Counted from the first letter of the stretch, positions 2,507-62,800 are shown. The stretch is DNA of 64,000 nt from an uncultured Elusimicrobia bacterium (GCA_963702895.1 OY969767.1:2336001-2400000), one strand, 5' to 3'. Program-made: numbers and translations. The notes: generated by a model not told the origin, from the letters alone.

Positions 2507-4173
2507 TGAATCAATCCGCTCTTGATGAAGATCTTGGGTTCGACCACCAGGTCGATTTTCCGTCCCTCAAATTCTGTCGCCGTGATTTGCTGCTCGTAAT
2601 TCCACTTCAAAAGCTCTTCCTTATATTGGGCCCCGGTGGAGGCGCCCGAAAAAGCGCTCAAGGGGGCGATGGCCCCGCTGTCGTCAATGAGGACCGTGCG
2701 GTAGCTCTCGAACGTTCCATCGCCGTAATAATGGGTGACCGTCGCGTCGATATTGTTCGCGTCGACCGAGACCACCGGCAGGACAAAGCCGCCGGCGTAA
2801 TTCCAGGTCGCATCCAGGGGGTTCGCCAGGGTGTTGGCCGCACCGGACTTCGTGTAGTTGATCTTGGTGACGTCATTGATCGCGTGGGTGTAGCTGTTGA
2901 ACCGGCCCTTCCAGAATGTGTCGCCACTCGAAAGATTTTTGAAACTGTCACTCTCGGGCACAAAGACCCCAATCTGGGTGGCGCTGGGCAACTGGGCCTC
3001 CGTCACGGTGGAGAAGCTGTCCGCGAGAGGGTGATAAACCTTGTAGGTCCCATCGAGCTGGAGCTCCGAAGCGGCGACGGTCCTCGTATTGGTCGGATCC
3101 GCGGCATCGGTGAGAACGTAATTGCCGGAGCCGTCGACCTCAATTTTCACAAGATGCCCGCCCGTCGCTGTATCGTGGATGGAATCACGGGTATTGGACT
3201 GCCCCATCTCATAGGAGGTGAGGAAGTAGTCGGGAGCGGTCTCGCCGAGTTTTCCGGACAGGTCTTTGAGGGCAACCGAGAGATCCACGGGCAGGGGTTG
3301 ATTGAACGTTCCTTTATAGAAGTAATAATCGAGCTGGTCATTGCGCTCGTTCAGAACAACAAATTTGAAAGAGTCCGGCGTGGTCCGGACGATGTACTCA
3401 TCGAGCCTGACGCGGCGGCCTTCCACGTCGACGAGGCTTTTCCCCTCCGTATAGTCCGCGTAGCGCCGCTCCATCGCCGCGGCCGCGATCACGGCATTGC
3501 GGTCCATGTCGAGCCCGACTTCATGCCTGGCCTCATGGGCGAGCGCATTGTCAGTCTTTTTCCGCGTGTCCTGCGGGATGGGCCGAGGCCGTTCAATTGA
3601 TCCGTTCCTGACGCTGGTCATTTGGCCCGCGGGAACCCTGATTTCATCCTGCGTTCCCGGGATGGCGACCCCCACCACCCCGTGATAAACAGAGACCAGA
3701 GTCCCCCCGTCCCCTGTTACCGTGTCAAATTCGGTCCCGCGCACGGCGCAAACGGCGGTCGGCGTTTGGACGGAGAATTTCTCCAGACCTTTTAGTGTTT
3801 TGACCTTGGAGATGAGGCGGCCTTTGTCCAGATAGGCTTTCGTATCTCCGTCTTGCAGTGACTTGAATTGAAGGCTGGAGTCCGCTTTGACGACGAAATG
3901 ATGACCTTCCGCCGTCACGATGTCGACGGTTGAGTGAGATCCCGTGCGGAAGATGGACCCCTCTTCCACCCGTTCTCCGGGGGAAACCACGCGCCACTGA
4001 AGAGCGCCCGGCGCGCGCATGTCGACCGTGCCCCGCACATCATCCACTTTGGCGGAGGCCGCAAAGCTCGCCGCCGCGGGGGATAAGCCCAGACATAAAA
4101 AAAGCAAGCGCTTCACCCAAAAAGCGGCGAATCGCTTGCGCCGAACTTCCGATACCTTTAAAGATGCCCTCAT
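2503..4173 (-). CDS. FecR-domain secreted protein with large C-terminal domain of unknown function
   Basis: Signal peptide; FecR-type motif FSVQTPTAVCAVRGTEF...VSVYHGVV. Confidence 0.8.
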   Translation of the reverse strand: MRASLKVSEVRRKRFAAFWVKRLLFLCLGLSPAAASFAASAKVDDVRGTVDMRAPGALQWRVVSPGERVEEGSIFRTGSHSTVDIVTAEGHHFVVKADSSLQFKSLQDGDTKAYLDKGRLISKVKTLKGLEKFSVQTPTAVCAVRGTEFDTVTGDGGTLVSVYHGVVGVAIPGTQDEIRVPAGQMTSVRNGSIERPRPIPQDTRKKTDNALAHEARHEVGLDMDRNAVIAAAAMERRYADYTEGKSLVDVEGRRVRLDEYIVRTTPDSFKFVVLNERNDQLDYYFYKGTFNQPLPVDLSVALKDLSGKLGETAPDYFLTSYEMGQSNTRDSIHDTATGGHLVKIEVDGSGNYVLTDAADPTNTRTVAASELQLDGTYKVYHPLADSFSTVTEAQLPSATQIGVFVPESDSFKNLSSGDTFWKGRFNSYTHAINDVTKINYTKSGAANTLANPLDATWNYAGGFVLPVVSVDANNIDATVTHYYGDGTFESYRTVLIDDSGAIAPLSAFSGASTGAQYKEELLKWNYEQQITATEFEGRKIDLVVEPKIFIKSGLIQ

Positions 4174-4310
4174 ACTGATTTGGCAGCCCCACTATCCCCG
4201 ATCCAGGGACTGGAAGCTTTGCGTACACACCCTTGTTGCCAACCCGCCGTGACTGCACCGGAGGGCCCGCCAGCGTCTCCATGGCGGGGGGGTAGCCTTT
4301 AACAATCAGT
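4174..4310 (-). ncRNA. c-di-GMP-I (GEMM) riboswitch variant with enlarged P2
   Basis: Minus strand: P1 ACUGAUU/AAUCAGU, G-UUAAA-GGC junction, ACGCAAAGCUUCCAGUC...GAUAGUGGGGCUGCC matching the GEMM 3' half; ends directly at ATG 4173. Confidence 0.8.
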
Positions 4311-4315
4311 GGGAC

Positions 4316-4345
4316 ATGTTTAGCGCGGAATCAGAGGTTCGTCAA
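4316..4345 (-). promoter_or_regulatory. Putative sigma70 promoter for the riboswitch-led operon
   Basis: TTGACG-17 bp-TAAACA(T); predicted start near 4310, the 5' end of P1. Confidence 0.55.
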
Positions 4346-4432: not shown

Positions 4433-5404
4433 TTATCGAAACTCGAAGCGCAGTCCAAAGGCGGCGGCCATGTTATTGTGGTTAGCGAACTCACCATGAA
4501 GGCCCAGCTTCAGGAAGGGTAAAACGGTGATCTCAAGCCCGACTAGCGCGCGCAGGTCCGTATCTTCCACATCGCGGCTCGCCGTCCCAACCGTGTCCAG
4601 GGTCGTACTGGTGGGCGTCCCAGCGACAGAGGTAATCGTCCCAGTATTGGTGATGGAAGTACTCACTGACCCAAAATTCATATTCGCCGATGCGCCCACG
4701 TAGGGATTGAAGATCGTGATCTTCTTATTCAGAACGGCCTGGAGGCCGAAGCTCGTCGTATCCCATTGCGAACGCGTGGACCCCTCAGCATTCGATAAGA
4801 CCACGTCCGACGGGATCGTTGGATCATAGGGGGTCGTCGCGTCAAGATGACCCTTGGCATGAGTGAAATTGGCTCCCAGGGTTAGCCCAAAAGGGCGGGT
4901 GATGCCTTCCTCGATGAGATTCTTGCGGACATCCACCCCGAAAATAGTGTTTCCAATACTCGTATGGGTCGTCCCTTCATCGTGGCTGTAGGAGGGAATG
5001 CCGCCAAAGCGCACGCCCGTATCAAGCCCCCAAGGTAAGCCGATTTTAGCGTGGCCGATGATGGCGGGCATAGGGAAACGGTCTTGGACATCAATCAGGC
5101 CTGTGTCGACTACGGAGGTGCCAAGATTTCGCAGACCATCGATGTCCGCTTTCGTCCCTGATACAACGGCTTCCACGCCGAATTCAAAACCCAACATTTT
5201 GAGCTGCGTCGGCATGACATTGCCGGAGGTGGAATTAAAAGGAACGGCAACTTTGAGCTGATCGCTGATCCAGCCGCTCAGGAGCACGGAATCCGCCGTA
5301 ATCGCGTCAATGGCCTCTTCTGGCGTGGTCGGAGGAGCGGCAAGGGCGCTTCCTGATAAGAGACTCGCGACACATCCTAGGGCAAATAATTTTTCCAGTC
5401 TCAT
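4433..5404 (-). CDS. Probable outer-membrane beta-barrel protein (DUF6588-like)
   Basis: Signal peptide, GGAGG RBS, KIGLPWGLD motif, C-terminal GLRFEFR strand. Confidence 0.6.
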   Translation of the reverse strand: MRLEKLFALGCVASLLSGSALAAPPTTPEEAIDAITADSVLLSGWISDQLKVAVPFNSTSGNVMPTQLKMLGFEFGVEAVVSGTKADIDGLRNLGTSVVDTGLIDVQDRFPMPAIIGHAKIGLPWGLDTGVRFGGIPSYSHDEGTTHTSIGNTIFGVDVRKNLIEEGITRPFGLTLGANFTHAKGHLDATTPYDPTIPSDVVLSNAEGSTRSQWDTTSFGLQAVLNKKITIFNPYVGASANMNFGSVSTSITNTGTITSVAGTPTSTTLDTVGTASRDVEDTDLRALVGLEITVLPFLKLGLHGEFANHNNMAAAFGLRFEFR

Positions 5405-15375: not shown

Positions 15376-15900
15376 ACTCTTGAGAGAGAGTGTGCCATAT
15401 CTGGCCCTTGCCCTTCCAGCCCATCCAGCCAATCCCCGATTGACTTCCAGAAAGTTATGCGCCACGCTCATGCCTGTGAATCGCATTTCCCTTAGCTTTG
15501 TCTTCGGTTTAGGGATCGTTTTTCAGGACGGTCTTGATCGGATGAATGATCGTTTCGGCTGGCTCCCCTCGTCGGCCATGGCAAACCTCAGCTTCATTGC
15601 TCTGCAGTATGTCTTTCTTCTCATCTCAGGCTTCAACAGACTCCAAAATTCTCCCGCTTCTTAATCCCCAAGGAAGGTCGAAAGGGGTCTGACCCCAAGC
15701 GATATTCCCCTACCAAAACGACACCCGTCGATTGCGCGAACGGGGGTGTTCGGGGGATGTTCCTAGGTTGGTCGAAGGGCCTATTCAAGACAACAAAAGA
15801 CCCATATCTTTTTGGCCAAAAGGCATCTGGAAAGCGTCTCATAATCCGCCTAAAATTAAGTACCTCGAACGCGCGCGCATTACGCGCGTTCGATGTATCT

Positions 15901-18900
15901 ATGCAAAGATCGCTCCTACAGTTTGTGGCCCTGGTGCTCGTTCAGTGTTTCCTGCTCGATCCTGCCTTGGCGCAGGTCTCGCCTCTAACTCCGGGCGTCT
16001 CACTGTCCATGCCCCAAGAGCTTTCGGTGATTGAGCACCAAGCGATTACCGCGCCCTTTGCCTTTTTTTTCCGTCGAAATAGGCTCAACGAACCAGCGGC
16101 TATCTCGCTCGTGGCTCAATTTCGAACCTACTGCGCGTCCGCCGTTACGCGAATTCGTCATTCTCCGAAACCGCGGACATCAGCTCCAGCGGAAGATCCT
16201 AGAGCCCGCCTGCATACGGCGTTTGACACGCAGGACGAAGCGCTCTTTAAGCAGGCGCGGCGGGATTTCGACGAGCGGGGAGAGGGGCAATTGACGGTTT
16301 TTTCACTCCACCCGATTACCACCTGGGGAGGCTCCTCGGTTTTGACCGGAGCCGCCCTTAAGGATCAGCTGGAATCGATTTGCCAGCTCATTCCGGCCAC
16401 CAATCCATACAACCGCTTGCTGCTGCGTAAACTCCTGATCTCCATTCAGTTCTGGTCCGGCACCTTTGGGGGTCCGAAAAACGTGGGCGGGTTTATCATT
16501 CAGAAGGGCCAGTTCATGAACTCCAACGGGATGAACGAAGAGTCTCTGCGCCTTACGGTGCTCGGACCGATCCATCGATTTGTGCCGATTTATTTGTTTA
16601 GCGGCGGAAACAGCGGGTATCAGCCGGCTTTTCAATCCCACTCTTCAGGGATTGAAGTTATCATCCCCCTGGCCCACGATATTCGCGGGTCCAGGCCTCC
16701 GGACTGGGGCGCCGACGTGATCGACGTGTTCAGCGGCATCGGCGGATCGCGCAACCGGGTCGAGAGAATTTCCCTCCCCGATGGCCGGACCGCGATCCGG
16801 AAGACGACTCGGCTGGACGAAGAAGTGGTCCCTTCGAAACTCCGTGATGAAATCTCCTACATCCAACGGCTGCGGGCGGAAGGACTGACCACCCTGCCGG
16901 AGATCTACAGCGTCTCAGAATCCGAAGGCACGCTCAGTGTCGTGATGGAGGACTTTGAGCCAGAGGGATATTTTTCGGTCACCAACCTCTCCTACTTGAA
17001 TTCTGATCTGGAAACGCTCGCGATTTCAAGTTTGGCAATTTGGGATTTCGGGATGCATGTGTACAGAAGTCTATTGGACCCGCTCTATCGCCAGAACGTC
17101 GGCGAAACCCCGAGCGACTTTGTCGAGCGCTATCACCTTCGCAAGATTGATGAGCGCCTCGCGCAGGCTAGACAAAAAGCGCCAGTCCTGGACGAAATGA
17201 TCGATGCGCCGGTCGTCAGGGCACCGGGTATGTCGGGGGAAGAAGCCTATCTTCCCGGGTGGGCCGCGCTGCGCCCCTTTCTTGTCGCGATCGCGGGCAC
17301 CGGGCTATTGTCCCCGCCTTATCTTGCGCGGGATCATGGCGATCTCAATTTCGGTGATATCCTGATGGATCCTCTGGAGTATGCCCGCGATGGGAAATTC
17401 CAAACCTTTCGGCTGATCGATCCGAAGTATTACCCCGAAGGCAATGACTATCTTTACGATTTTGCCAAGCTCCTGCATCACTTTGTGTCACTATATGATC
17501 TCGGCCGATTTGATCCGGTTTTTGAGATGCGGGCCATGAACCGCGGGCAGTCAGGGCGCGTCCCTCATTTTAGGATCGAAGTGGATGACGAGGGCTCCAT
17601 GGTTCCCTTCCGCCTGAGCATGGAAATGCGCCAGCACTTTATTCGCTGGCTCGAGGGATCGCCTGACTTCTTTGGGTTGGAGCAGGGCGCCGACTGGAAA
17701 ATTCGTCTCCTGTTCACGGTCGGCCTTCAAATGGCAGGTTTGCCTCCTTTTCACCTGCGGCATAACGGCATGGAATCGCCTGCACGAACGTTCTATCTGA
17801 TCTCGCTCGCGTTCCTTTATCCGCTGGTCGATCTCATCCTGACGGGCGACTATGATCAGACCGTGCTGCGAAAGATCGACCCGGCCATCCGCTCCGCGTG
17901 GGTTCAACTGAAGATGCAGGTGGAAGAGGCCCGTGATGCGGATACACTAGACGATATCTTATCCTCCAAAAACCCGGTCCCCGCGCTGCGGGAGTTTCTG
18001 TCGAAACAGCGCCGCGCTCCCATGTTCATGCCGGCCTATCTGGGCCGCCTGGCGAGAGCTCTCTCGCCTGAACAGGTCGATGTTTTGAGCCGCTGTCTGT
18101 TCGAAATCGTGACCGGTCAATCACCAAGCGATTATGCCGCCGCCCTACCCGCTCCAGGAACGAGGCCCGCGAACCAATCGGTCTCGGAGGAGGGACTTCC
18201 CCGCATCGCCACGTTGACCCCCAATCCCGTCCTTGTCCTAACCGTTGATTTCAATCATTTCCCAGGCTCCGGTGCGTCGCGCGATACCAGGCCCATACTT
18301 CTTGAACCCAGCGGCAAAGCCCTCAATATGTCTGTGGAATTACACCAATGGGGCGTATGCCCGATAACTGTGGCGCCCGTTGGAGGGGCCATGGGTCAGA
18401 TCATCAGGACGCTCCTGGAATTCCAAGGGGTCGATACACGGGGGCTTGTACCGATTGAGGGCGAATCCCGGCTTTACCTGATCTTAGAGGCAAGCCCCGG
18501 AAATCATGTTGAGATCTTCGGAGCAGGGCCTCGCGTTCCCTCGGAGGTGCTCCAGCAGATGCGGGAGACACTCTGGGAATCCTTACAGCCGGGCGATTTC
18601 CTTTTGCTGGGAGGAAGCCTACCGAAGGGCGCTCCCGACGACTATTATGCGACGGTGATCCAGGAAGCCAAAGCGCGTGGCATAAAGACCTATCTCGATA
18701 CGCGGGGGGCGGCCCTGCGGCCCGCGATCGAGGCCGCGCCCCATTTTATCGGCGTCAACCTCCTTGAGTTTTCAAGCTACCTGGGTCATCCCTTGACGTC
18801 CTTGGAGGAAAACAAAGAGGAAATTCTTGCCGCGCTCAAACGGCTGGTGGCCCGCGGTACGGATATCGTGGTCATCAGTCATGAAAGCGAGGGGATGATC

Positions 18901-20106
18901 ATGGCCACACGGGACGGCGCCTGGATCGCTCATCCGCCCGCGGTGACGCTCGTTTCTCACACCGGAGCGGGGGACACTATTAAGGTCGCTTTCAGCTACA
19001 GTGAGCGCCAGGGGGCCACGATCCTTGACGCCTTGCGGCTAGCTGCGGCCGCCAGCGCCATCTCTGTGACGAAGCCCGGGACGGGCCTTGCCGGCCTGGA
19101 AGAAGCCCAGCAGAAGCTGGGCGAGGTGACGATCGAAGCCCTTGAACAGGGACCCCCAAGTAAACGGGTGGCGATCATCGGCGCCTCCGCGTTCCTGGGA
19201 AAGAAGATCGATGCGACACTGCGCCGTCGGGGTATGGACGTTATCGGCACCGCATTTACAAAGCGAGGGGATGTTCAACTCGATGTGACGCAAGCCGCTG
19301 ATGTAAAGGCATTCCTGGACAAGGAACAACCCGATGTCGTGATTTATGTGGCCGGAGAGACTGATCCTGAAAAAGCCGAGGCCAATCGGCAAAGGGCACA
19401 CCTGCTCAACGCCGGAGCGCTCGATCACTTTTCCAATTTTAAAGGACAGTTTATTTACATCTCTTCCAATTACATCTTTGATGGGATAAACCCGCCCTAT
19501 GCCGCGGGAGATCCGCCTCGTCCTCTGAATATTTACGGGGAAACAAAATGGGAAGGTGAACAAGCTGCTCAGCGGCTATTTCCGGGCCGCTGCACCATTG
19601 TCCGATCGGATTTCCTTTATGGCCATAATGATGCCTCAGACAAACAAACGTTTATCCACCAGCTCGTCGCCGCTTTTCAGGAAGGCCGCCCGGTGGAGAC
19701 GGACAACGTCCAGGTCCGATCGCCGGTCCTGATTGACGATGTCTCCCGTGTGGTAGCGGATGCCATCGAAGAAGAGCGTTTAGGAGTGATCCAGGTCAGT
19801 GGTCCCGACTCCTTGACCAAATTCCAAATGGCCCAAATCGTCCGCGTGGTTTTTGATCGCCTTTACCCGCACGCCAAAGCCAGCACGATTTCCGATGGCG
19901 CTTCGGTCGATCTAACGCATCGTCCCCGCGATGCCAGAATGACGACCTCCTGGGCTTCCACGTCGTTTCGAGAAGCGCTTGAAACTTTGATCCCGCTCAT
20001 CGCCGGGGGCATCGCGGGAGGCCCAACGACGGACGCTCTCCTTGAGATCCTCGACCACCGCGGCGATGCCCCGCCGGGCCATGCCAAGCTCAGCCGAGCT
20101 GCCTGA
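15901..20106 (+). CDS. 1401-aa multidomain protein: signal peptide, APH/kinase-like, PfkB (1-phosphofructokinase-like) and RmlD-like reductase domains
   Basis: MQRSLLQFVALVLVQCFLLDPALA; HGDLNFGDIL/LIDP/YDFAKL; TLTPNP, SGKALN, GSLPKG, TGAGD; GASAFLG, YISSNYIFDG, YGETK. Confidence 0.85.
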   Translation: MQRSLLQFVALVLVQCFLLDPALAQVSPLTPGVSLSMPQELSVIEHQAITAPFAFFFRRNRLNEPAAISLVAQFRTYCASAVTRIRHSPKPRTSAPAEDPRARLHTAFDTQDEALFKQARRDFDERGEGQLTVFSLHPITTWGGSSVLTGAALKDQLESICQLIPATNPYNRLLLRKLLISIQFWSGTFGGPKNVGGFIIQKGQFMNSNGMNEESLRLTVLGPIHRFVPIYLFSGGNSGYQPAFQSHSSGIEVIIPLAHDIRGSRPPDWGADVIDVFSGIGGSRNRVERISLPDGRTAIRKTTRLDEEVVPSKLRDEISYIQRLRAEGLTTLPEIYSVSESEGTLSVVMEDFEPEGYFSVTNLSYLNSDLETLAISSLAIWDFGMHVYRSLLDPLYRQNVGETPSDFVERYHLRKIDERLAQARQKAPVLDEMIDAPVVRAPGMSGEEAYLPGWAALRPFLVAIAGTGLLSPPYLARDHGDLNFGDILMDPLEYARDGKFQTFRLIDPKYYPEGNDYLYDFAKLLHHFVSLYDLGRFDPVFEMRAMNRGQSGRVPHFRIEVDDEGSMVPFRLSMEMRQHFIRWLEGSPDFFGLEQGADWKIRLLFTVGLQMAGLPPFHLRHNGMESPARTFYLISLAFLYPLVDLILTGDYDQTVLRKIDPAIRSAWVQLKMQVEEARDADTLDDILSSKNPVPALREFLSKQRRAPMFMPAYLGRLARALSPEQVDVLSRCLFEIVTGQSPSDYAAALPAPGTRPANQSVSEEGLPRIATLTPNPVLVLTVDFNHFPGSGASRDTRPILLEPSGKALNMSVELHQWGVCPITVAPVGGAMGQIIRTLLEFQGVDTRGLVPIEGESRLYLILEASPGNHVEIFGAGPRVPSEVLQQMRETLWESLQPGDFLLLGGSLPKGAPDDYYATVIQEAKARGIKTYLDTRGAALRPAIEAAPHFIGVNLLEFSSYLGHPLTSLEENKEEILAALKRLVARGTDIVVISHESEGMIMATRDGAWIAHPPAVTLVSHTGAGDTIKVAFSYSERQGATILDALRLAAAASAISVTKPGTGLAGLEEAQQKLGEVTIEALEQGPPSKRVAIIGASAFLGKKIDATLRRRGMDVIGTAFTKRGDVQLDVTQAADVKAFLDKEQPDVVIYVAGETDPEKAEANRQRAHLLNAGALDHFSNFKGQFIYISSNYIFDGINPPYAAGDPPRPLNIYGETKWEGEQAAQRLFPGRCTIVRSDFLYGHNDASDKQTFIHQLVAAFQEGRPVETDNVQVRSPVLIDDVSRVVADAIEEERLGVIQVSGPDSLTKFQMAQIVRVVFDRLYPHAKASTISDGASVDLTHRPRDARMTTSWASTSFREALETLIPLIAGGIAGGPTTDALLEILDHRGDAPPGHAKLSRAA

Positions 20107-30604: not shown

Positions 30605-32482
30605 ATGCGTTGTCCGCACAAGGTACAAACGATATTTTCATGCCTGGTCGCCTCCTGCCTCGTGTCCCAGCCGCTCTTGGCGGATGTGCCCAGGCTCATC
30701 ACACCGGACCACGCGCAAGCCATCTACCGGCAGCTGGTGGAGTTTCACTATACGCCGCAGACAGGGCTCTTCCGCAGTTTTCCCGATTCCACCGATTTAA
30801 AGCTTTCTCAACAAGCCTCGACCTATGAACAAGCGGCGATGGGGCTCCTCGCGATTCGTTTTGGAGACAAAGAGCGCGCAGAGGGTCTCTACCAATTCTT
30901 CAAGCGTGCCTGGGAGGCGGGGCCGCAGGCCCAGGGTCCGCGCTACGGGGTTCGAGGCCTCGCGAATTTCTACAACGCCTATTTTGGTTCGGAAGGAATT
31001 GAGAAAACGATTCACGCGGGGCCGAATGCCTGGGTGGGCCTCTTTGCCGCCAAGTACGCCAACACGACGAAAGACCGCCAAGCCCTCCAGTTCGCGCTGG
31101 ATATCCAGTATTGGATGGCGATGGTCCTGCCGCACGACCGCGGCGGGATCGCCATGGGACTGCGCAACGACCCTTATGGCGCCTCCTGGAACCGCATCTA
31201 TTCGACAGAAAACAACCTGAGTTACTTCGCTTTCCTCACCGAGATTCTCCGAAGCCCCGCGCTGGAGAAAAGCAAACGCATCGCCATCACGCAGGAGCGC
31301 GACGGCCTTGAGCGCTGGCTTTTCAAAATCGCTTACGACCCCAAGAAGCGCTCGATGCTGCGCGGCCTCAATCAGCATGGCCATGACATGATCCGCGCGC
31401 TGGACACCTTTACCTGGCTGATCTCGACCCTGGGCCCTCGGCGTCTCGATGAAAAGGGCCTTGATCCTTTTGCGCTCATGCGTCAGGCCGAACAAGAGTT
31501 TGAAGTCACCGTGAGCGGACTCCGCGGCGTGGACGCCACCGATGAGACGGAAGCCGCCCGTGTCTTTGTCGATCTGAGAAACCACCTGGAAGAAATCAAT
31601 CGTCCTTTCGACGATGGCCATCGCGTCATTTGGTACGAAGGACTGGGCCAGTATATCCTGGCCTGGAGCAAGCTGGCGGATTACGCCTCCCATATCGGTG
31701 ATCAAGAGAGGGCGGCAGCCTGCAGGCAAAAAGCCCAGCGGATGACCGAAGAATTTGACAAGGCGGCGCTCGCCCGGTTCAGCGGCCTGCGGGCCTATCC
31801 GTATGCGACGCCGGGTAAATTTTTCCGCTACGGCTGGGGTGCCCCGCGCGAAGCGGAGGGAGGCCCTGCTGCCTCCCTGATTGCGGGGATTTGGCGGTGT
31901 TTTGCCGGCCTTGGCCTGGATCCACTCTCCGGGCAATCGGCAGGATACGCAAAATCTCTCAAGGTCTCTCTTCCGCAAAACATCCAGCTGGCACAGAGCA
32001 AAGGGGCCGTCCTCTACGGCACATCGGAAGATATGACGACGGAGGCCTGGCGCGCTCTCAACGCGGGGGACTATCCGCACGCGATCCGCCAGGCGCGCGC
32101 GACCGTTGAGGAATGGTCAAGCGCCGCAAAGTATCTTCAAAGGATGAAAAAGGCCGAGGTGGGCGCTCTGGTGGAGTATGCGGGCGATCCAAAAGACAAA
32201 ATCAGGGTCTTTAAGTATTGGGCACTCAACGATGTCGCAGCGGCTTATTTTGTCCTCGGAAAAGCGCTCGACCACGAGAAAGATTTCATCGGCGCCTCTC
32301 ATGCGTTTTCGCAAGTTGTGACGCAGTATCCTCTCGCCCAGATCTGGGACCCTCAAGGATGGTTCTGGTCCCCGGTTCAAGCCATCACCGATGACTATGT
32401 GCTGGCCGACCGTAAACACTACGGCTGGGTCCTGCCTCGCGCGTTCGCCGAAGGCTCCCGTACCGGCAAAACCCCCTACTAA
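30605..32482 (+). CDS. Secreted protein, possible six-hairpin glycosidase-like domain plus TPR-like C-terminal domain
   Basis: Signal peptide; STYEQA, GPNAWVG, STENNL, WYEG motifs; C-terminal YWALNDV...WDPQGWFW. Function inferred. Confidence 0.6.
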   Translation: MRCPHKVQTIFSCLVASCLVSQPLLADVPRLITPDHAQAIYRQLVEFHYTPQTGLFRSFPDSTDLKLSQQASTYEQAAMGLLAIRFGDKERAEGLYQFFKRAWEAGPQAQGPRYGVRGLANFYNAYFGSEGIEKTIHAGPNAWVGLFAAKYANTTKDRQALQFALDIQYWMAMVLPHDRGGIAMGLRNDPYGASWNRIYSTENNLSYFAFLTEILRSPALEKSKRIAITQERDGLERWLFKIAYDPKKRSMLRGLNQHGHDMIRALDTFTWLISTLGPRRLDEKGLDPFALMRQAEQEFEVTVSGLRGVDATDETEAARVFVDLRNHLEEINRPFDDGHRVIWYEGLGQYILAWSKLADYASHIGDQERAAACRQKAQRMTEEFDKAALARFSGLRAYPYATPGKFFRYGWGAPREAEGGPAASLIAGIWRCFAGLGLDPLSGQSAGYAKSLKVSLPQNIQLAQSKGAVLYGTSEDMTTEAWRALNAGDYPHAIRQARATVEEWSSAAKYLQRMKKAEVGALVEYAGDPKDKIRVFKYWALNDVAAAYFVLGKALDHEKDFIGASHAFSQVVTQYPLAQIWDPQGWFWSPVQAITDDYVLADRKHYGWVLPRAFAEGSRTGKTPY

Positions 32483-49433: not shown

Positions 49434-50753
49434 TTATTCAACCCACTGATCTCTAAGGAGCAGGTCTTCCAGGGTGAGCCCGCGGACGTGAGAAGTTTCG
49501 AAGCGCTGCTTATTCACAACAAGCAGGCGGCCTTTAGGAAAGGAACGCGCAAACCAGGAAAACTCAAGAGGCGAAGCACTCCCGCGTTTAACTTCAATAA
49601 AGCAGTTTGGTTCAAACATATAATCCAGTTCATGCTCCTTGGTTTGCCAAAACGTTAAGAGTTCCGGCGTTTGGTCTCCAGCGATGGCACGCCGGCGCCA
49701 AATTTCCTGGGCCACAGCCCATTCAAGAAACATCCCTTGGACCGTTTCTGGCAAACGCTCATATTCCCCTACAGACCAGGGACGCATCGGGTGCCATGCC
49801 GCCGCGACCAGGAGATTGAGAAAGGGATATTTCGCCTGCTTCCTCGGGAGGCGAATGTGTTTGGCGCTGTCCCAGACCTGGCTCTGTCCGACACACAAAA
49901 GATCTGCCAAAAACTCTATGTAGCCGGCCGCGACCGTGTTGTTGGCGAGCGCTGCTTCCCGGGCGAGCTTGGCCTGTCCAATGGCATCTCCTCCGTGACG
50001 GGTCAAATAATCCAATACAGCAACGACCGCCGAACGCGAACGCCCGGCCGCAGCACATTCTCCATACACCCAATCACGCACAAGCTCAATCAGGTAAGGA
50101 GGGAGATTTCCTTGGGTGGCCAATTCCGTCAGCGCAATGGGGGAGCCTCCTGAAATCAGGTAGGCAGGTATCAGTTGATCTCCCATCTGATCGCCGCACT
50201 TGTCCTTGAAGGCCCGAAAGGAGATTGGCGTAAACAGGTAGGCCGTTCGGTCAAGCCGCCCTTTGCGGCCGGGGAGACGCTCAATTCCACGGCGCAGGTC
50301 ATGCGCCCTAGAACCTGTTGTGACCACCAGCACCTCTCTCAACACCCCGCTGTCCAGGAGCCTCTTTAGAACTCCTGTCCATCCCTCGATAGCCGTGACT
50401 TCATCAATAAAAAGCCGTTTGACCGGAGCCTCTTTCGCAAAAAGAGGTAATAGGGATTGAAGGGCTTCCAAAAAGTCCCGTGCGCGGGGGATCTCGTCCC
50501 CATTCAAATAGAAACAGCTCCCAGCACCAAATGCCTGGATGGTGTGACAGATTTGTTGCTCAAGCCAGGTGCTTTTTCCATACTGGCGCGCGCCGCGGAT
50601 GGTGAGCATACCCGGCTCGCGCGGGAGCTCCGGCAGGCCGAAATCAACCGTGAAGACATGCGGCGCGCGCCCCAGCTGCTCCACATGCGGAAATAGTCCC
50701 GGAACGTCCAGCCGACCTTCAGCCAAGGCTTGGTTGATCTGATTAACGTTCAT
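49434..50753 (-). CDS. AAA+ ATPase (AAA_14 + DUF4143-like, C-terminal nuclease-like motif)
   Basis: GARQYGKST, LFIDEV, VTTGS, L.GR, ELDY...IEVK. Confidence 0.85.
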   Translation of the reverse strand: MNVNQINQALAEGRLDVPGLFPHVEQLGRAPHVFTVDFGLPELPREPGMLTIRGARQYGKSTWLEQQICHTIQAFGAGSCFYLNGDEIPRARDFLEALQSLLPLFAKEAPVKRLFIDEVTAIEGWTGVLKRLLDSGVLREVLVVTTGSRAHDLRRGIERLPGRKGRLDRTAYLFTPISFRAFKDKCGDQMGDQLIPAYLISGGSPIALTELATQGNLPPYLIELVRDWVYGECAAAGRSRSAVVAVLDYLTRHGGDAIGQAKLAREAALANNTVAAGYIEFLADLLCVGQSQVWDSAKHIRLPRKQAKYPFLNLLVAAAWHPMRPWSVGEYERLPETVQGMFLEWAVAQEIWRRRAIAGDQTPELLTFWQTKEHELDYMFEPNCFIEVKRGSASPLEFSWFARSFPKGRLLVVNKQRFETSHVRGLTLEDLLLRDQWVE

Positions 50754-50878: not shown

Positions 50879-53800
50879 TCAGGCGTTGGTAAGGAAGGCT
50901 TCGCGGAAGGAATTGAGTTCCTTGGAGAGCGAGAGGGCTTTCTTGTCGCCGGCTAGATCCGGGCGGTTGACCATGCGTTCGGCCACATGGACAAGGTCGT
51001 TGATCGTCGCGCGGCGGCGGCCCGCGCTTTGAGCGGCCTCCACGGTGCTTCCAACCGCTGCGGGCAGCTTAGCGACCTGTTCACTTCTGGCAGCCACATA
51101 GATCTCGGCGATCTTGATGATCCTCGACTCGTCTTCTTCGTTCGGGTTTAAGAGGTGCGCGAGCTCATGGCTTGCGGTCAACAACTTCATCCCGCTCGGC
51201 AGGAAAATATTAACTCTGCCCATGCGCCTAGCGGCAGCGGCATCCCCGAAATGGGTGAGTATTTTCCACCATGAAGCGGTCCGAGAGTCGCCCTCCCGAT
51301 CCTCGTAGCCGTAGGGAAGCAGGGAGATGGGATCCTGCCCCCGATCTTTCAAAATATGATTCAATCCCGCTTCAACGGCCCGCAGTTCCTTAAAAAGATG
51401 CTTCCGATGTTTCGGGGAAAGCGCCGCGCGCGCCATATTCACGGCCATCCCGGCCCAGCCCTTGACGGCCTGCCACAACCGAAAATGATCCAGAAGTTCT
51501 CCGGCGCTCAGGTGCTGGACTTCAGGCCTTGAGGAAGACGCCGCATCGTCTTGGACTGGAAGGTCGGCATCAAGATACGCGTTGACCTTGTCCAAAACCC
51601 GCTCCGCGAATTGATCCGCAGGGATCGTATTTCCTGTCGGAGGCGAACCGTCAGTAGGATAAATAACGTTATGGATGAGCCGCTGAAGCTGTCCGCTGAC
51701 TCTGGGTGCAGCTTCTCTGAGGCTCTCGCCATAGCTATCACTTCCAATGGCTCTTACAAATACGTCTTCCCAGTAATGAGAATCCTTTCCTACAAACGCG
51801 TTACGATGAAAGCGGGAGTGACCAGATGGATCACTAAGATGTGTTCTAGCGACATCCCATAAAATGTTCTCTTCCTGGGTGCGAGTGTCAGTGCGGGTGC
51901 CTGTCACGGCAGATGCGCTAGGTTTCGCCTTGGTGTCTGACACAACAGAGGCGCTAGGTTTCACCGTTGTGTCAGACGCCGGAGCAGATAGAGATCCTTT
52001 GTGATTAATCAATAAATACCCGCCTTCCACCAGCTCTATGACCTTAAATCCATTTTGCTCAAATGCGGGAAGAAGCCCTGGATGAGCATCTAGCATTCCG
52101 GTGGTCATCAGGAACCTGCCGCCATTGACTAAAATCCGCCGAATTTCTGTAGCGGCCGCTTGGTAAAAAGCCTCCGGTCCCTGATCGGCACCTCTTTGCA
52201 AGTCAAAGTATTCGTTGTTGAAAAGGGCAATGCTGATGGCAATATCGAATGAATTATCGCTAAATGGCATTTTCTGCACCTCGCCCTGAACATATGAGCT
52301 ATCTCCTCCTTTGGTTCGCCGCACGATAGGATCCAATCCAACAACCTTCACGCCAAGGCGATGCAAATAGGAGACGAGGTTCCCATCTGTTCGTGGTCCT
52401 GAGCCGATGTTCAAGATCCTGCTTTGGCGAAGACCATCGAGAGTCAATCTATTTTCTCCTGAGCTTTCGAACATGAGTTCTTCGAAAATGTCGATCTCTG
52501 TTGATTCTTCTCCAGTTTGGCGCGGCGGCAAACCGCCAAACGAGGGAGTGTCAATTCTGTCCCGATCCCCCGAACCCACTCTCGTTGTGCCAAGCACCGG
52601 TGCTTGAATCCGTCGGACGGCTGCCGGGGGGACGGTGTGGGTTGGAGTTGGCGGTTGAGTCGAAAACGCTATCATGGCAATGACGTCGTGGAGGTTCTTC
52701 CATTCCTCCCGGGTCAAGGACTGCCCTTGCGTGGCCATGCCCACGATATCGGACAACCAAAGTTGATCCACTTCGCATGCCAATCCTCCAATTCCGAGGA
52801 AGGATGGCAGATGCTCAAAAGGTGCGGAATGATAGAGAGCAGCTGGATCAATTTTCTCAGCAGAAAATTCCTCTACCTTTATCTCAAAACCATGGGCCTT
52901 AACATCCGCCCTTATTTTGTGGATAAGACTTTCGATGTCCCTTCTCGCGGATTTGTCCTTGGAGTTCGAACTTCTCACCAAAATCCGTTTAGGGGGGTGC
53001 TGGTCAAAAAAGATCGCGCGATAGACACGACCGTCAGAGAAGGTCTGGCCAATTTGAGGGGATGAAACTTTAAGGGCGTCCAATCGCGGGGAATCATTAT
53101 CAGGAAATTCAAAAACAATGTCTCCTGACTGGGAACCGAAGAGATCAAGAGGGAGCACTTCCCTTTGCGAAAAACGGATTAACCAGTCCTTATCGATTTG
53201 TGAAATTGGGCTGAATTTCATTAGACGTTTCGCCGCGTGCTTCATATTTTTCCAATCCCGTATGGCTTTCTGTGTTGTGAAGTCGATCTCGCGGAATATT
53301 TTTTCCCATCCCCTATCGCCAATGTTCTCAAGTACACTGGCCTGTTTGATCCAGGCGGCACGCAGCTGGTTCATCAAGGCGTTGTGACGTAGTACCCGTT
53401 TTGGTACAGGGACGGCGTCTCCCGACGCGGTCAGGTAGGCGGGAGTTTCGCCGCGGCGCTCACGCTCGGCTTCGGCCCGTTGATGGTCCTTGTGCGTGAG
53501 GACCTGCGCGAAATAACCAAGGGTCAGGACGGCGAGCGCGTTCGCGAGGCCGCCGAGCAGCCCCACCCAAAAACTTGAGGGGTCGGCATAGAGCCAACCG
53601 ATCACGCTCAGAACAGCCGTAGGGAGCATGATGGACCAGATGGCGATGAAGATCCTTTCTGCACCGTCACCTAGCCGTTCAGCTGCTTTTGGATATTGAT
53701 TTTGAGGAACGAACTTCTTCTCTTTCTCGTCGTAGATCTGGTGCTCGGCGACAAAGAGAAACGGCCGGACCATGAAGTTCCAGAACTCGGGAAGATAGTA

Positions 53801-56800
53801 AGGGGCAAAGTGGTGGTGGATCCAGTCGAGTTCATGATCCTTCAGCTCATTGCCCTTCCGCGTCATGTCCAGATACTTCTGATAGGTTTCAGTTGCTTCC
53901 AGCTTCGGGCGGTTCAGGCTGAAGAACCATCGCAAAAACGCCAGTCGCCCCATCCGCTTTCGGATCAATCCAGCCTTGTAGGTGTTGGGGTGCGTCAGGA
54001 AGGCAAGGCCGGGCTGCTTAGGGCCAAAGACAAGTCTCATATTTTCAAGCGGGGGACCGATGACCTTCTCATAAGCCGAACCCGCTGCCTTACGGATGTC
54101 AGCATCGGGCACGTGGGCTCTTCGCAGCGCCGTGAAAAACCGGGCGGCATCATGGATGCTCACAGGACCCGCAGACTGCGCAATCTCCCGGGCACCTAAA
54201 ATGTCACGGAGACCATCTTCACGAGCCAGAAGGCGAAAGACGGCGCTTGCGACATCGATGTGCTCTTGTTTGGCATCCGGCCCCCCGGCCTTTTTCAAGT
54301 CCTCCAGGTGCCGCAGGAGATCCCAATAAGGATTGTCCGCAAATGCCAAGCCTCCCAAATAAGCGTCCAATTCGCTTGGCAGAGAGTCGCCAGGGGCGGT
54401 TGGTCTCAAGCTTCCGACCCGATCGAGCATGTTACGCCAGAAATGGAGAAACTCATGCTCACGGACGGTTTCCCAGTGTTTTCTGGCGGCCTCACTTTGG
54501 GTGATGCCGCCAAAGGTTTCCAACAGGACATCGCGAGCGATCTTGCTATCGACGCCAAACTTGTCTTTCAGCTCCGCATCGGGCGTATCAAGCAATCTAC
54601 GGTGAGTGGTAGCCGCTACGGGAACGACCCCTTCGTCAATAATGACGGCTTGTTGGTACTGAAGCAAGAAGCCGGTGACATTTCTGCGCTGTCCACTCAC
54701 CAGGCGAGCTGGAATAACCTGCACCAGCCATCGCATGTCATCTCCGCTGATCTCAAAGAACTGGATGCGGCTCTTCTGGAACGAGTAGTAATTGACCCTC
54801 AGCGGTCCTCCCGAATTTTGCCACTCGCATACAAATCCCATACGTTCAAGGTCGTCATTCAACTGAGACATCGCCTTCCCAATCAACGTGGTTCCTTCTT
54901 TGCTATGTTTTTCCGCCCAGGCTTTCACAATATCTTTGGCGTTTTTCGGCAGCTCCTTCGCGTCTTCCAGAATTATTTTCATGTCGAAAATTCCGGTCGT
55001 ATCCGGGATTCGCTCGCTGGCTGCCGGAGGACGACCAGCCGCGGGAGCGCCATGAAACGCGTCTTGAACCGGCGACGCCGCAATCAGGAACATGCCCAGA
55101 ACCACCGGCTGCAGCAATCCCAAGAAGACCCTTGGGATGGTTCTTCTCTTGGCCTTTGGCCCGGCCGAGCCTAAAGCCGCGCTGACCGCTTGCCGCATCG
55201 TGTCGAGAGAGCAAGGTTTTTCAACCAGCTTGATGTCAGGGTGCGTGAGTGCGAATTCCACATCCTTGAGGATGTCGTTGTTCCCGGTAAATAAGATGGC
55301 GCGCATCCCCGGCTGGATGCTTCGAACCTGTTGAATGAGTTCTTCCCCGACCATGGCTGGTTGGCCTTGAGCTGAGAGATCCCTGTCGGTGATGATGAGA
55401 GAAAAATATCCCGGTCCAAAGTCTTTGAGCTTTCTTAAAGCATCTTCAGCGCTGTTGGCTGTGACGACTTCGTACCCCTGGTCCGACAGATCTTCCCCAT
55501 ACGAATCAAGGTTGCCCTTCTCATTATCCACGAGCAGAATTCTTCCCTGGGTTGCGGCCTGGGTGGTCGGGGCCGGGGCCTCACCCGGCGAAGCCGTAGA
55601 GTCAGAGGCGACGATGCTTGCTACGACTGGTGTGTTAACATCCCTTCCAATGCCCTCCCCGCTTTGAATGGGGACGATGTAAGGTCTGCGAACCAAACTT
55701 AAGACGTGATCCTGATTCTCCGGATTCACCCAGCTCACTAGACCTTGGCGAACAAAATCCGGCGGATGGGGATCAAAGAGAGGGTCACCCACGAACCAGG
55801 CTGGCGGTTTTGGCAAAGACGATCGGTAGCGTTCGAACTGGTCAAAAATAGCGGGCACTTCTTCTTTCGCCCTGACTCCTGCATCGGACAGCTTGGTGTC
55901 GAAGCTCAGCAGAGCTCCGATCATATCGCAGCGGACTTCGATCTCGTTCCTCAAGCGATCCGACAGCCCTTTATCGACGAGCAGAATGGATGTGAATGCC
56001 GCGTCCCCTTGCAGAATATGCCCCAGTTCATGGCCAATAATGAAGGCCCGCTGCGGCGGTGTCAGCGTCTTCAGAAAACCCGTGTTCAACAGAATGACCG
56101 GCATCTCGGACAACGAGGCATCATCAAACAAAACGGATCCAAAGGTTGGCGCGTCATCCGCTACGATAATGGTCGTCCTTAAAAGACGTTCCCTGATATG
56201 GGGTGGTATGTCCTGCATCTCAGCCCAGCGATCGCAAGCTCGCTTGAAAATGGCTTCCGCTTCCGCTGTCGCCGCTGGGTTGCGGCGCAGCCCGTGTAAA
56301 AACTTTCGGGCATCCGGCGGCGTGTTGTCCGCCGGCGCACTCTGGGGGGTTGCGGCGCCGGCCGGCGCGATAGCGGTAGCGACTGTTTCGGGGTTGTCCG
56401 GTTTGGTGGCGCGGAGCAGGTAGTAATCCGGGTGCGTGCCGTAGGCGGAGAGCGGGATAAGACGCACGTTCTCGAGGCCGACTTGGCGCAGATCTTCACT
56501 CACATCTTCGGGCTGATCCCCGCGATACTCATAGAACCACCCCAGCGACGAGACAGACAAGATGGAGCGCGTGCCATAGCTCGCGATAAAGATCCGGCCG
56601 CCTGGCTTTAAGACGCGCGCAGCCTCGCGCAAGGCCTGCTGGCGGTCCGGCATATGGCCGAGGCTTTCAAAGAGAAAGACCGCGTCAAATGTGTTATCAC
56701 CAAAGGGTGCCTCCCTGCCATCAGCCCGCGCAAGTCTCCCCTGCATACCATTCTTCTTTGCTTTTTGGAGCTGATGCTCTGACAGGTCAATGCCAAAGAA

Positions 56801-59800: not shown

Positions 59801-62800
59801 GTCGAATTGAATCCTCTGAAATGGATTTTCTTTAAGTGGATGGGGAGACCAGTCCTTATCCCCTATGAGGTCATTCGCACGCGCGAATCTGAGTTCTTTC
59901 CCCCTCTGATCCCACTCAATGAAGAGATAGCTTTCATCACGATGTTGCAACACGATGTTGGTGTTCCCGTGGGCATCCAAGTGGATATCAGGGAATTTCT
60001 TATCCTCGAGGCTTGGGACGTCGTAGACTGCGCCGTAGAAGGTTCCGCGTTTGTAGCTAGACGCCCAATCCGCGAGATTGCCGAGGATATTCACGTCACG
60101 TTTCAGTTGTTGGAACGCGAGGTCCTCGAGGAGGCGCCCGCTGGTGAGGAAATCGAACAAGCTGTGGCTGGCGGCGATCATTGCCGTCGAAGCGATGATC
60201 GCAAGAGGGGAAGGTGTCAATTGAAGAAACGGGACAGCGGGAACTGCGGCAAAACCATACAATCCAAAAATCAATGCAGGTATGATGCTCTGAACAAGGC
60301 CACGCCCAAAGGCGTTGGCCAAGCGGGGGAAAAAGCTCAAGTCATCCCGGGCACGGTAGTTCGCGATGATGGCAAGCGGCACATGCGCAAATCCCAATCC
60401 CCACAGCGCGTAGGACAGCCAGCCCAGCGGATGCAGGAGGGAGACGCCGATCAACACGGTTGCGATCGAAGCTTCCGCGAGGCCTCCCCATTTCCCCAGG
60501 CTCCGCACCCGTTCGGAGTTGGCGTCCTTTCCCCAGGCGAGCGCCAGCCACATAGGCAACGACGCCGCGCCGCTCGGACCAGAACGCACCCTTCGTCCGC
60601 GGTTTGTGTGCTCCTGTGGAGTTAAGAGGGAAGAACTGCTGATTAGATTCTCTTTAGCGACCGGCGCCGTGCTCCAGAGAGGGTTGTCTACAAAAACCGG
60701 AGTGCCTCTATCGCCCCGCACGCAGATGATTCGGCCGTACGAGAGCTCACTCTTAACTCTACTCCCCACAATTTTCTGCGGTATCCAACTCACACCTTCC
60801 GGACCAGCCGTCAGCGCGTAAACGGTTATTAACTTAACACGTCTATCCGTTTGATTGGTTGAGTACCCTAAAGCCTCGTACGCGTCCAATTTGGCAAAGG
60901 GCCGGAGTTTCGGATGCAGCATCCACTTCCCATTCCTCTGTTGCGCATCCGTAACAAAATAAACAACATGACCAATCAAGGGCTTAAGATTCTTCCACGG
61001 GATTAGCCAAGTGCCTGGCTTCTTCTCTGATTTCTTGCTGGTCGGCTTGCGCCCTTTCCTGCCGGAGCCCGGTTGTTCGTCGATCGGCGGCCCATGCACT
61101 TGGACCATCTGCCGATCCGACATGGGCTTCGCAGCAGGGTGTTTACCCACATGCCAGCCCTCCCCAAATTGAGGTGCACCCAGCTTGAGCGGGGGGGTGG
61201 GGGTGACGGAGGTAGCCGGCGCGGCGGGCCCGCCCGCCGTCAGCGCGGCGCCGTCGTTGGCGTGAGCCTCGTTGTAGAACGTGTGAGCCAAGACGTTAGC
61301 GTGGTCGCCGCCCAGGCGATGCCCAAGCCCCGCGGAGAGAGCCGTCAGGATAGCCTCAGTCAGGAGGGACAAGAGGAAGATGTCAAGGGAGAACATCGTG
61401 CCGTGAAACGATTGGCTGAAAGCCATCCCCAGAGGCAGCACCGCGAGCGCCAACCCCGCCCCCACAGCCAGGCCCGCGAGGAGCCCCTGCCGGGCGCCGG
61501 CGCGGCCGGCTGCCACAATGCCACGCATCCCCTGACCGCGGGCGCGCCGGATTCTTTGCTCCACAGCCGTGTCGTTCAGTTTCCATGAATCAGGATGCAC
61601 TTGGCGATAGGCTTGGATATCCTGCTGGCTGACCAAATGGTCGTCCACAAAATCCTGAGCGCACTGCGCATTGCGGAAATGGCGTCTTTCAAACCAAGGG
61701 GCGAAATCTTCTTCAATTTTCCGCCGCTCCTCTGGCGTGAGCTGCCACTTGATGGGCTTCATCATATCGCCAAGAACGAGGCGAGTCTCTTTCTCGATCG
61801 CGACGCGCCGGGACGTCCACCCCAGGGCGCGATAGAGGCGCCACCGCAGGTAGATTGGTTCCCCCAGCCGGTACAGGATCGCCCCCGCCAGATAGGTGTC
61901 CGGATGCGTCAGCGCGTCGCCGGCCGGCGGAGCGGGGGTGTCCTCGGTATCGCGTTTCGGGTTGGTAGCGGGCAAGGCATCAGGTGAGGTCTGCTCCAAA
62001 GACACACGAGGCCGCTCCGTTTGGTCAGACTCCTTCATCCCGACTACTTTCTTCAAATTATCTTTAAGGTTGTTGGCGTTAAGGAGATTTGCCTGAACAC
62101 GATTCCTATCTGCGATTTCGTCTTCGATATTAACGAATTCGGTCCGTGAGAGGCGGCGTTCAAGCCCGGCTATTTCCTCTTGATTCCACTTTTCCAGCAG
62201 GCTAAAGTTTTTCGGTTCTTCGCGTTTCAATTCCGAAAGCGCTTGAACTTGATGATCAGCGCTTAAGTACTTTAATAGGTTTGATAGATGGAAGAGATAT
62301 TCGTCGTTCCAATCCGGCCGCGCGTGGGTAAATTCGTCATAAATAAACGCGGGGTCAATTAATTGAATGCGGCCGGAGGCGCTGACGAAATATTGAAAAT
62401 CACCTGTGATTCGCATCCCAACAGATTCAAAACGTCGATGAATCTCCCTTAAATCATTGATCGTTTGTGGAGTTAGCTTCTTTGCCATGACCTCAGGCAT
62501 ATCGCCCGGGGTTATATCAACGACGATGTTCCATCGGCGATCGCGATCTCTGTCTTTGCCGTGCGCCTCGGGACCGACCCCCAGCCGTTGATTCAACAAT
62601 GCGCCACGAAAATCCCGCAGCAACTGTGCTTCGAGTTGATTGGGCGAAAGGGGATGCGATGGATAACTCGTAATCACGGCGACTGGCCTGCCATCAGCCA
62701 AATAACCGAGTCGAACGAGACCCCCTGAGCCGCTGTCAATCCGGCTAACCAGAAAGACATCTTTCTCCGGCATGACCACCTTGCTTTGTGGGATGTCTTC

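Follow-up and report, generated by a model that had tools for sequence, protein, structure and literature searches.

The closest described counterparts of the protein analysed here are the giant proteins of Omnitrophota called 'Archaeovorins', together with related giant genes of the PVC/Elusimicrobia radiation. In the available part of the preprint on these proteins (West-Roberts et al., 10.1101/2023.11.21.568195), many transmembrane (TM) helices are reported between methyltransferase and peptidase domains, and Archaeovorin-type proteins are described as exceeding 30,000 amino acids (aa) and as carrying a divergent SecA DEAD helicase domain together with glycosyl hydrolases and transferases. 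The same text treats topology predictions for such proteins as unreliable and self-cleavage as possible (10.1101/2023.11.21.568195), and giant genes are said, in the accessible portion of a second source, to be common in Elusimicrobia (PMC12057145). Here we describe a giant open reading frame (ORF) in a 64,000-nt stretch of DNA from an uncultured Elusimicrobia bacterium (GCA_963702895.1 OY969767.1:2336001-2400000; hereafter the window) and a segment of its product, module A, which is present in two diverged copies and may tether the chain to the membrane.

The ORF lies on the minus strand, has 4373 codons in the window and extends past the window end on its 5' side. The full-length product, P0002, has 5344 aa, and its final 4373 residues are 100% identical to the window translation; residue n in window numbering, which we use unless P0002 is named, is residue n+971 of P0002. 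Like the Archaeovorins as they appear in the available text, P0002 is encoded by a very long ORF of an uncultured lineage and has TM helices among methyltransferase, peptidase and mostly unrecognisable domains. In contrast to Archaeovorins, neither the Pfam scan of the window nor the full-length Pfam list contains a SecA_DEAD or glycosyl domain, and the domains that are recognised are of signalling type (PP2C, receiver and methyltransferases). Because P0002 is much shorter and has no SecA-like or glycosyl domains, it is an analogue of the Archaeovorin-type proteins as described there and not a member of the group. Module A is not described in the part of the giant-gene literature available (10.1101/2023.11.21.568195). 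A literature search on transmembrane hairpins in giant multidomain or polyprotein proteins of bacteria found nothing relevant among the papers listed.

MARTX toxins and viral replicase polyproteins also carry arrays of domains in one chain together with built-in proteases that release them, and viral hydrophobic hairpins tie the products to the membrane. P0002 resembles both in joining unrelated enzyme and protease domains in a single chain, an analogy of layout only, and unlike in MARTX toxins the Pfam scan detected neither a C80 cysteine protease domain nor RTX repeats.

Two diverged copies of module A

In the first-pass annotation of the window, two diverged copies of a membrane spacer were proposed on the basis of ten motif strings, and we found that all ten are present on the minus strand and that the two copies align significantly. 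In copy 1, the strings LTHPDTY, FAPWFE, FVDDH, ANVLAH and ALTAGG start at aa 697, 766, 784, 901 and 919. In copy 2, LTHPNTY, FAPYYL, FVAEH, AQVLTH and YLTASG start at aa 3335, 3398, 3416, 3498 and 3522. Both copies are internal to P0002, where they start at aa 1668 and 4306. In a pairwise BLASTP comparison, 56/187 positions are identical (36.6 bits, E=1e-7), and identity between the copies is 25% in a four-row alignment, A2, that contains three full copies and a fourth sequence and in which 27 columns are invariant in the full copies.

Each copy begins with a cap, A/F/E-L-T-H-P-D/N-T, that stands straight after a proline-rich stretch. The cap is followed by A..I..R.G....LRW and, about 90 residues on, by F..[DE]H, all within an N-terminal helical domain of approximately 100-140 residues that is rich in aromatic and basic residues. 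In the first 90-104 residues of this domain, Trp, Phe and Tyr together make up 12.5-18.4% as compared to 7.6% of the whole protein, with the highest value in the first 98 residues of copy 2 (18.4%). Two hydrophobic helices come next, and the module closes with a tail that has one or two conserved histidines and ends in A-x-L-T (Table 1). The tail aligns differently in different MAFFT alignments, which makes residue-level statements about it soft; the pairing of ANVLAH with AQVLTH in the first-pass annotation was not recovered, since MAFFT aligns these strings otherwise.

To weigh the similarity of the two copies, we used Smith-Waterman comparisons with shuffled sequences. None of 1000 shuffles reached the score of the whole module (z=10.0) or of its N-terminal soluble part (z=10.5). 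Against background windows of the giant protein, copy 1 scored at most 40 (67 windows) and copy 2 at most 44 (64 windows), whereas the true pair scored 80. A self-comparison of P0002 with 200-aa windows and short words recovered the pair at residues 1660-1691 and 4298-4329 (50% over 32 aa, E=1e-5). When we searched the 671 six-frame ORFs of the window with a hidden Markov model (HMM) built from the two copies, we found no third copy (next best E=1.1).

The same HMM, run against 1.84 billion representative proteins, matched four at E<=0.001: P0002 itself, P0003, P0005 and P0004. P0003 (386 aa, partial), which NCBI lists under Elusimicrobiota as a partial hypothetical protein, matches copy 2 from one end of the module to the other, with the two hydrophobic helices inside the aligned part (34% over 184 aa, E=3e-25), and scores 98 bits against copy 2 and 36 bits against copy 1. 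P0005, a sequence of 107 aa, aligns with the beginning of copy 1 (49% over 49 aa, E=1e-10) and scores 47 bits against copy 1 and 37 bits against copy 2. P0004 is a TPR/AAA_16 protein whose match is confined to profile positions 200-240 and falls on six repeats, and we judged it spurious.

We considered whether the resemblance between the copies could come from chance or from a shared hydrophobic, low-complexity composition without homology. The hairpin and tail taken by themselves are marginal (23/1000 shuffles reach the score), a self-BLAST of all 4373 aa at default settings missed the pair, with nothing listed off the diagonal, and one of the four database matches is the spurious TPR protein. 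These points are outweighed by the soluble part, whose score no shuffle reached, and by P0003 and P0005, in which these motifs recur independently and in an unchanged order. We give the idea practically no credence: by these comparisons the copies are homologous, and chance similarity is excluded. Because each copy is nearer to one of the foreign fragments than to its sister copy, the sequences indicate that the duplication is old. Two subtypes of module A are probably present in other Elusimicrobiota. We also considered a foreign origin of one copy and rejected it, as GC content at third codon positions (GC3) is 0.75 in copy 1 and 0.71 in copy 2, inside the range of the neighbouring genes (0.59-0.75).

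The module boundaries are sharp. We found no similarity between the upstream flanks of the two copies (E>=2.9) or between their downstream flanks (E>=0.11), and searches of the four flanks against Pfam, even at E<=1, gave nothing above cut-off. In P0003, likeness to the giant protein begins at most 5 residues from the LTHP boundary, and the upstream 180 aa reach a best E of 0.06; in P0005, the 43 residues preceding the module are likewise without similarity to the giant protein. A linker scan flagged proline-rich linkers at both edges of copy 1 and none at the edges of copy 2, where the proline-containing stretches are short. Because the flanks are unrelated between the copies and in P0003 and P0005, the unit of homology, as judged from sequence, is module A alone, with different sequence beside each occurrence. 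The first-pass proposal that the module separates unrelated domains is thus borne out at the sequence level.

Module A is also very rare. Word-indexed searches for relatives found none among proteins of 423-2000 aa and P0002 alone among 1134 candidates of 2939-9352 aa; among proteins of 36-422 aa they returned P0003 alone, and P0005 was not recovered there. The sequence cluster of P0002 has two member sequences, on one contig, and in the collections searched the giant protein has no relative. In GTDB species genomes, 7 stretches fitted the pattern LTHP[DN]T[YI][LK]A, none of them confirmed, and tblastn searches of plasmids and phages gave no match.

Family and fold searches agree with the earlier statement that module A belongs to no named family. 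Within module A, Pfam at E<=1 gave only sub-threshold matches to small membrane proteins, all falling far short of their cut-offs (E=0.23 for DUF5518, 0.029 for ATP-synt_I, 0.031 for Ddi2_HDD and 0.14 for DUF4064), and no NCBIfam match fell inside it among the 25 of 45 families listed. We found 0 PHROGs families for copy 1, copy 2 and P0003, 0 matches at E<=10 between PDB sequences and the A2 profile, and no usable match in the ESM Atlas. Foldseek searches of PDB with the low-confidence models of both copies found nothing at E<=0.001, the best E being 1.4. Taken together, these searches indicate that module A is a real, very rare and lineage-restricted domain family without a name, known so far from Elusimicrobiota alone.

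A hydrophobic hairpin and a predicted membrane tether

In all three full copies, module A has two hydrophobic stretches of 19-26 residues separated by 5-6 residues, in keeping with the two TM segments per copy proposed earlier. The loop between them contains no Lys or Arg in 3/3 copies, while the 15 residues before the hairpin contain 2-3 and the 15 residues after it 1-5. In AlphaFold2 (AF2) models, both copies are nearly all helical and end in two long helices, and copy 2 has one short β-hairpin. The predicted local distance difference test score (pLDDT) is 76-87 over the first helices and 80-87 over approximately segment residues 11-80 of copy 1. Along P0002, the chain is interrupted by 8 hydrophobic clusters, including hairpins and four-helix clusters, and at least seven clusters besides the module A hairpin lie between its soluble domains. 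The soluble domains recognised in it are cytoplasmic signalling and enzyme types: PP2C, two S-adenosylmethionine (SAM) methyltransferases, a receiver and M48-like zincins.

By the positive-inside rule, membrane-protein segments rich in positive charge face the cytoplasm. We propose that the two hydrophobic helices of module A insert into the membrane as a hairpin, which would keep both ends of the module on one side, and by this rule that side would be the cytoplasm. Each copy would then re-attach the chain to the membrane between soluble enzyme-like domains and keep its neighbours at the membrane surface. A tether with cytoplasmic ends is suggested because positive charge lies on the outer flanks and is absent from the loop, and because the layout is repeated between enzyme-like domains. 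On balance, and by a slim measure, we favour the reading that module A is an unnamed Elusimicrobiota family that acts as a membrane tether between enzyme-like domains and that its two copies come from an old duplication.

A hairpin of this kind has been described in chlamydial Inc proteins, whose bilobed hydrophobic domain consists, in the available text of the sources, of two hydrophobic helices with a very short loop and is defined by structure, with low sequence conservation (PMC3656976, PMC3290821). The likeness to module A lies in two helices of about 20 residues with a short loop, a pattern seen in 3/3 full copies, and in flanks that would face one side. Those sources present Inc proteins as small effectors that Chlamydiae export by type III secretion and that insert into a host vacuole membrane. 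Inc proteins have no sequence relation to module A. Unlike the Inc domain, the module A hairpin is internal to an Elusimicrobiota giant protein, is joined to a conserved helical domain of 100-140 residues, and has no recognised link to a secretion signal or system.

Several observations weigh against a tether. Insertion and orientation are predicted solely from hydropathy and charge counts. The AF2 models, built from four-row alignments, are weak (mean pLDDT 59.8 for copy 2 and 65.2 for copy 1; predicted template modelling score 0.40/0.41), and the N-terminal helices are not notably amphipathic, with a hydrophobic moment at the 90th-98th percentile for this protein. Between the copies, the similarity of the hairpin and tail is marginal (z=2.6) and depends on the alignment. 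In addition, a lone hydrophobic stretch, TIPRVFLGLLQPVVLGMFLIAASPVQ, lies after the receiver domain at aa 2954-2979. It makes the count of membrane passes odd from the receiver or first methyltransferase to the second methyltransferase and so fits no simple topology. If this stretch crosses the membrane a single time, copy 2 would have both its ends outside the cell, together with the second SAM methyltransferase, contrary to the charge pattern of copy 2 and to the need for SAM. Either this stretch is misread or the hairpin model is wrong somewhere. Finally, a passive tether would need neither an invariant LTHPxT nor four histidines among 27 invariant columns. Because of this invariant cap and the excess of invariant histidine, the soluble part of module A probably does something more specific than act as a spacer.

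Conserved histidines, possible chain cutting and proposed recombination

The first-pass annotation had seen histidines at matching positions in the two copies and had suggested a metal site or self-processing, and the observation itself holds. In A2, four of the 27 invariant columns are histidine (in LTHP, in F..[DE]H, at the end of helix 2 and in the tail DH/IH), while histidine makes up 2.5% of P0002 overall. The LTHP histidine is kept in 4/4 sequences and the [DE]H histidine in 3/3 full copies, and both are robust; both alignments made of the two copies keep the tail DH/IH histidine invariant. Whether the histidine closing helix 2 is invariant varies with the alignment used, so that there are three or four invariant histidines.

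These histidines, one of them preceded by a conserved acidic residue, could bind a metal or haem at the cytoplasmic membrane surface, either within one module or between the copies, and module A would then be a ligand-binding or catalytic membrane domain that serves in sensing, redox chemistry or self-cleavage. The histidine pattern is the one positive sign of such a role, which it makes possible, and invariance across just three full sequences is weak evidence. One of the four columns is alignment-dependent. The module has no HExxH; the window part of the giant protein has three such motifs (aa 2657, 3182 and 4278), all outside module A. Searches of Pfam, the NCBIfam families listed and PDB tied module A to no protease or metal-binding family, and Foldseek, which was run on low-confidence models, gave no fold match. 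We consider a ligand-binding or catalytic module unlikely, although less so than the other alternatives discussed here.

Three specific identities were rejected. A zincin or known self-processing module is at odds with the lack of HExxH inside the copies and of any protease family match. CPBP/Rce1-type intramembrane proteases carry the motifs EExxxR, FxxxH and HxxxN/D, and all three full copies of module A do contain F-x-x-x-H (FVDDH, FVAEH and FAVEH) and histidines after helix 2; however, the FxxxH of copy 1 lies in a hydrophilic stretch, there is no conserved EExxxR, and no Rce1-like Pfam match appears at E<=1. J domains are four-helix domains of about 70 residues in which the loop that joins helices II and III contains the tripeptide HPD. 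In module A, HP(D/N) stands at the module start after a proline-rich linker, copy 2 has HPN, and Pfam at E<=1 lists nothing of the DnaJ type.

The A-x-L-T strings at the module edges raise another reading, in which the giant ORF encodes a membrane-anchored polyprotein that is cut at these strings by its own zincin-like domains, so that the module and its neighbours would be set free as separate membrane-tethered proteins. Self-cleavage by built-in peptidases is raised as an open question in the available text of the giant-gene preprint (10.1101/2023.11.21.568195). In P0002, A[FY]LT occurs 3 times where 0.17 are expected, and at least 3 occurrences arise in 0.02% of 5000 shuffles. Two of the sites coincide with the N and C edges of copy 2, and the third is 6 residues before the stop (AFLTNA, then the stop codon). 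AYLT also stands at the C edge of the module in P0003, the edges of copy 1 carry DALT and AALT, and LT[HA][PGS] occurs 7 times where 0.71 are expected. Candidate proteases are at hand in the three HExxH motifs of the window part and in a further M48-like repeat in the N-terminal part beyond the window. However, the motif was spotted post hoc, which inflates its p-value; four of the seven LT[HA][PGS] sites are module edges by definition, and at least 3 sites are reached in 3.6% of shuffles. The motif is absent at the other domain boundaries of the protein, and one ALTHPD lies inside the receiver domain. We regard cutting at these strings as improbable.

We rate very slightly lower still a fuller version, in which P0002 would be a bacterial membrane-anchored polyprotein with module A as both anchor and punctuation, its histidines would form a metal or haem site at the membrane surface (possibly between copies), and A-x-L-T would be cut by the protein's own zincins. 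If true, this would yield a set of membrane-tethered enzymes from one translation product. To our knowledge, such a layout is known from RNA-virus replicases and not from free-living bacteria.

It had also been suggested that the modules serve as recombination points for swapping cargo domains. Flanks that differ between the copies and in P0003, together with several internal duplications in the protein (module B, zincin and methyltransferase), would fit exchange by homologous recombination. The DNA of the present copies argues against it: they share no exact word longer than 11 nt, and blastn aligns at best a piece of 51 nt at 71% (E=0.015), whereas RecA-dependent recombination needs far more identity than this. 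Because the copies are direct repeats in one gene, exchange between them would delete 7.9 kb and not swap cargo. No variant of the gene appears in the collections searched, and since the giant protein is without any relative there, none with exchanged cargo turned up. The suggestion is not supported for the present copies, and we hold it to be very improbable. The tether between enzyme-like domains remains the reading we favour for module A.

The host protein, its neighbours and what module A offers

Outside module A, few parts of the giant protein are recognised (Table 1). A phmmer search of the whole giant protein against PDB sequences gave 33 matches, all in the methyltransferase and receiver regions, and the sole PADLOC match is methyltransferase-like (aa 2359-2536). 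Two of the recognised domains are duplicated within P0002: the M48-like zincin region (648-745 and 3606-3701, E=2e-4) and the SAM methyltransferase (3342-3445 and 4830-4938, E=1e-3).

A second recurring membrane module, module B, has an ASL..W.ALA.GKD motif followed by four hydrophobic helices. One copy lies in the window and its partner at P0002 aa 450-600, beyond the window; the copies, B1 and B2, share 34% over 71 aa (E=4.6e-5). A third four-helix cluster, B3 (aa 1511-1625), is not significantly similar to B1 or B2 (E=0.79 and 2.9). A relationship between module A and module B was ruled out (hhalign probability 0.1%, E=0.49). GC3 is higher in the membrane modules (0.68-0.75 in both module A copies, B2, B3 and a stretch at aa 291-330) than in the soluble segments (0.48-0.63), and overall GC along the giant gene varies from 49% to 66%.

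The neighbours of the giant gene are ordinary chromosomal genes: GlyS, AspRS, a type II/IV secretion ATPase, histidine kinases and a fused indolepyruvate-type oxidoreductase. At 79% identity, the window's GlyS matches that of an Elusimicrobiota metagenome-assembled genome; the best five of 74 loci are all from Elusimicrobia/Elusimicrobiota, and the other 69 reach at most 40%. Directly downstream of the giant gene is an AAA_14/DUF4143 ATPase gene, and next to it a gene for a 1263-aa fused indolepyruvate/pyruvate:ferredoxin-type oxidoreductase (POR_N, TPP_enzyme_C, POR and DUF6537). No functional link of these two to the giant gene is evident, and terminator-like sites between these genes do not exceed shuffles (3 found vs 2.7 expected). 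Elsewhere in the window, an ORF of 1449 aa encodes a PfkB sugar kinase (aa 850-1111) fused to an RmlD/epimerase domain (aa 1137-1405), preceded by approximately 850 N-terminal residues that have no Pfam match at E<=1e-5, and a 625-aa ORF matches no Pfam family at E<=1e-5. We found no Rfam family and no tRNA gene in the window.

Table 1. Positions of the features discussed, in nt of the window and in residues of the window translation.
Feature	Window position	Strand	Residues	Basis or remark
Giant ORF	50879..64000	minus		Translation; C-terminal part of P0002 = whole window translation, offset 971
PP2C domain			2-210	Pfam
Upstream flank of copy 1	61913..63010	minus	331-696	No family match
Module A copy 1	61229..61912	minus	697-924	LTHPDTY to ALTAGG; Pro-rich linkers at both edges
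Copy 1 N-terminal helical domain	61490..61912	minus	697-837	Invariant LTHPxT, LRW, F..[DE]H
Copy 1 hydrophobic helix 1	61412..61489	minus	838-863
Copy 1 hairpin loop	61394..61411	minus	864-869	SFHGTM; no Lys/Arg
Copy 1 hydrophobic helix 2	61322..61393	minus	870-893
Copy 1 tail	61229..61321	minus	894-924	His-bearing, GH..DH..H, ending AALTAGG; then Pro-rich linker
Downstream flank of copy 1	60506..61210	minus	931-1165	No family match
Module B, copy in the window	60128..60592	minus	1137-1291
SAM methyltransferase			2375-2472	Pfam and PDB sequence matches
M48-like zincin motif			2636-2672	Pfam
Receiver domain			2821-2939	Pfam, PDB sequences, NCBIfam
Single hydrophobic stretch	55063..55140	minus	2954-2979
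Upstream flank of copy 2	53999..55045	minus	2986-3334	HEFLH motif at aa 3182; no family match
Module A copy 2	53420..53998	minus	3335-3527	LTHPNTY to YLTASG
Copy 2 N-terminal helical domain	53654..53998	minus	3335-3449
Copy 2 hydrophobic helix 1	53588..53653	minus	3450-3471
Copy 2 hairpin loop	53573..53587	minus	3472-3476	ADPSS; no Lys/Arg
Copy 2 hydrophobic helix 2	53498..53572	minus	3477-3501
Copy 2 tail	53420..53497	minus	3502-3527	His-bearing, Arg/Glu-rich, THKDHQR..., ending AYLTASG
Downstream flank of copy 2	52511..53410	minus	3531-3830	No family match above cut-off
Second methyltransferase			~3859-3967	Pfam and internal duplication comparison
A[FY]LT, first codons	~53999-54001, 53435-53437, 50894-50896	minus	3333, 3521, 4368
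AAA_14/DUF4143 ATPase gene	49434..50753	minus
Fused oxidoreductase gene, 1263 aa	45527..49318	minus
1449-aa ORF	15757..20106	plus
625-aa ORF	30605..32482	plus

The giant genes of uncultured bacteria are mostly unannotated, and the available text of the preprint on them leaves the membrane organisation and cutting of their chains as an open question (10.1101/2023.11.21.568195). Module A is sharply bounded and recurs across organisms, and it thus offers a handle for parsing such chains into domains and a candidate for a new family entry. On present evidence, it would represent not a new principle but a lineage-restricted anchor domain, found in a single gene, that is useful for annotating the giant proteins of Elusimicrobiota.

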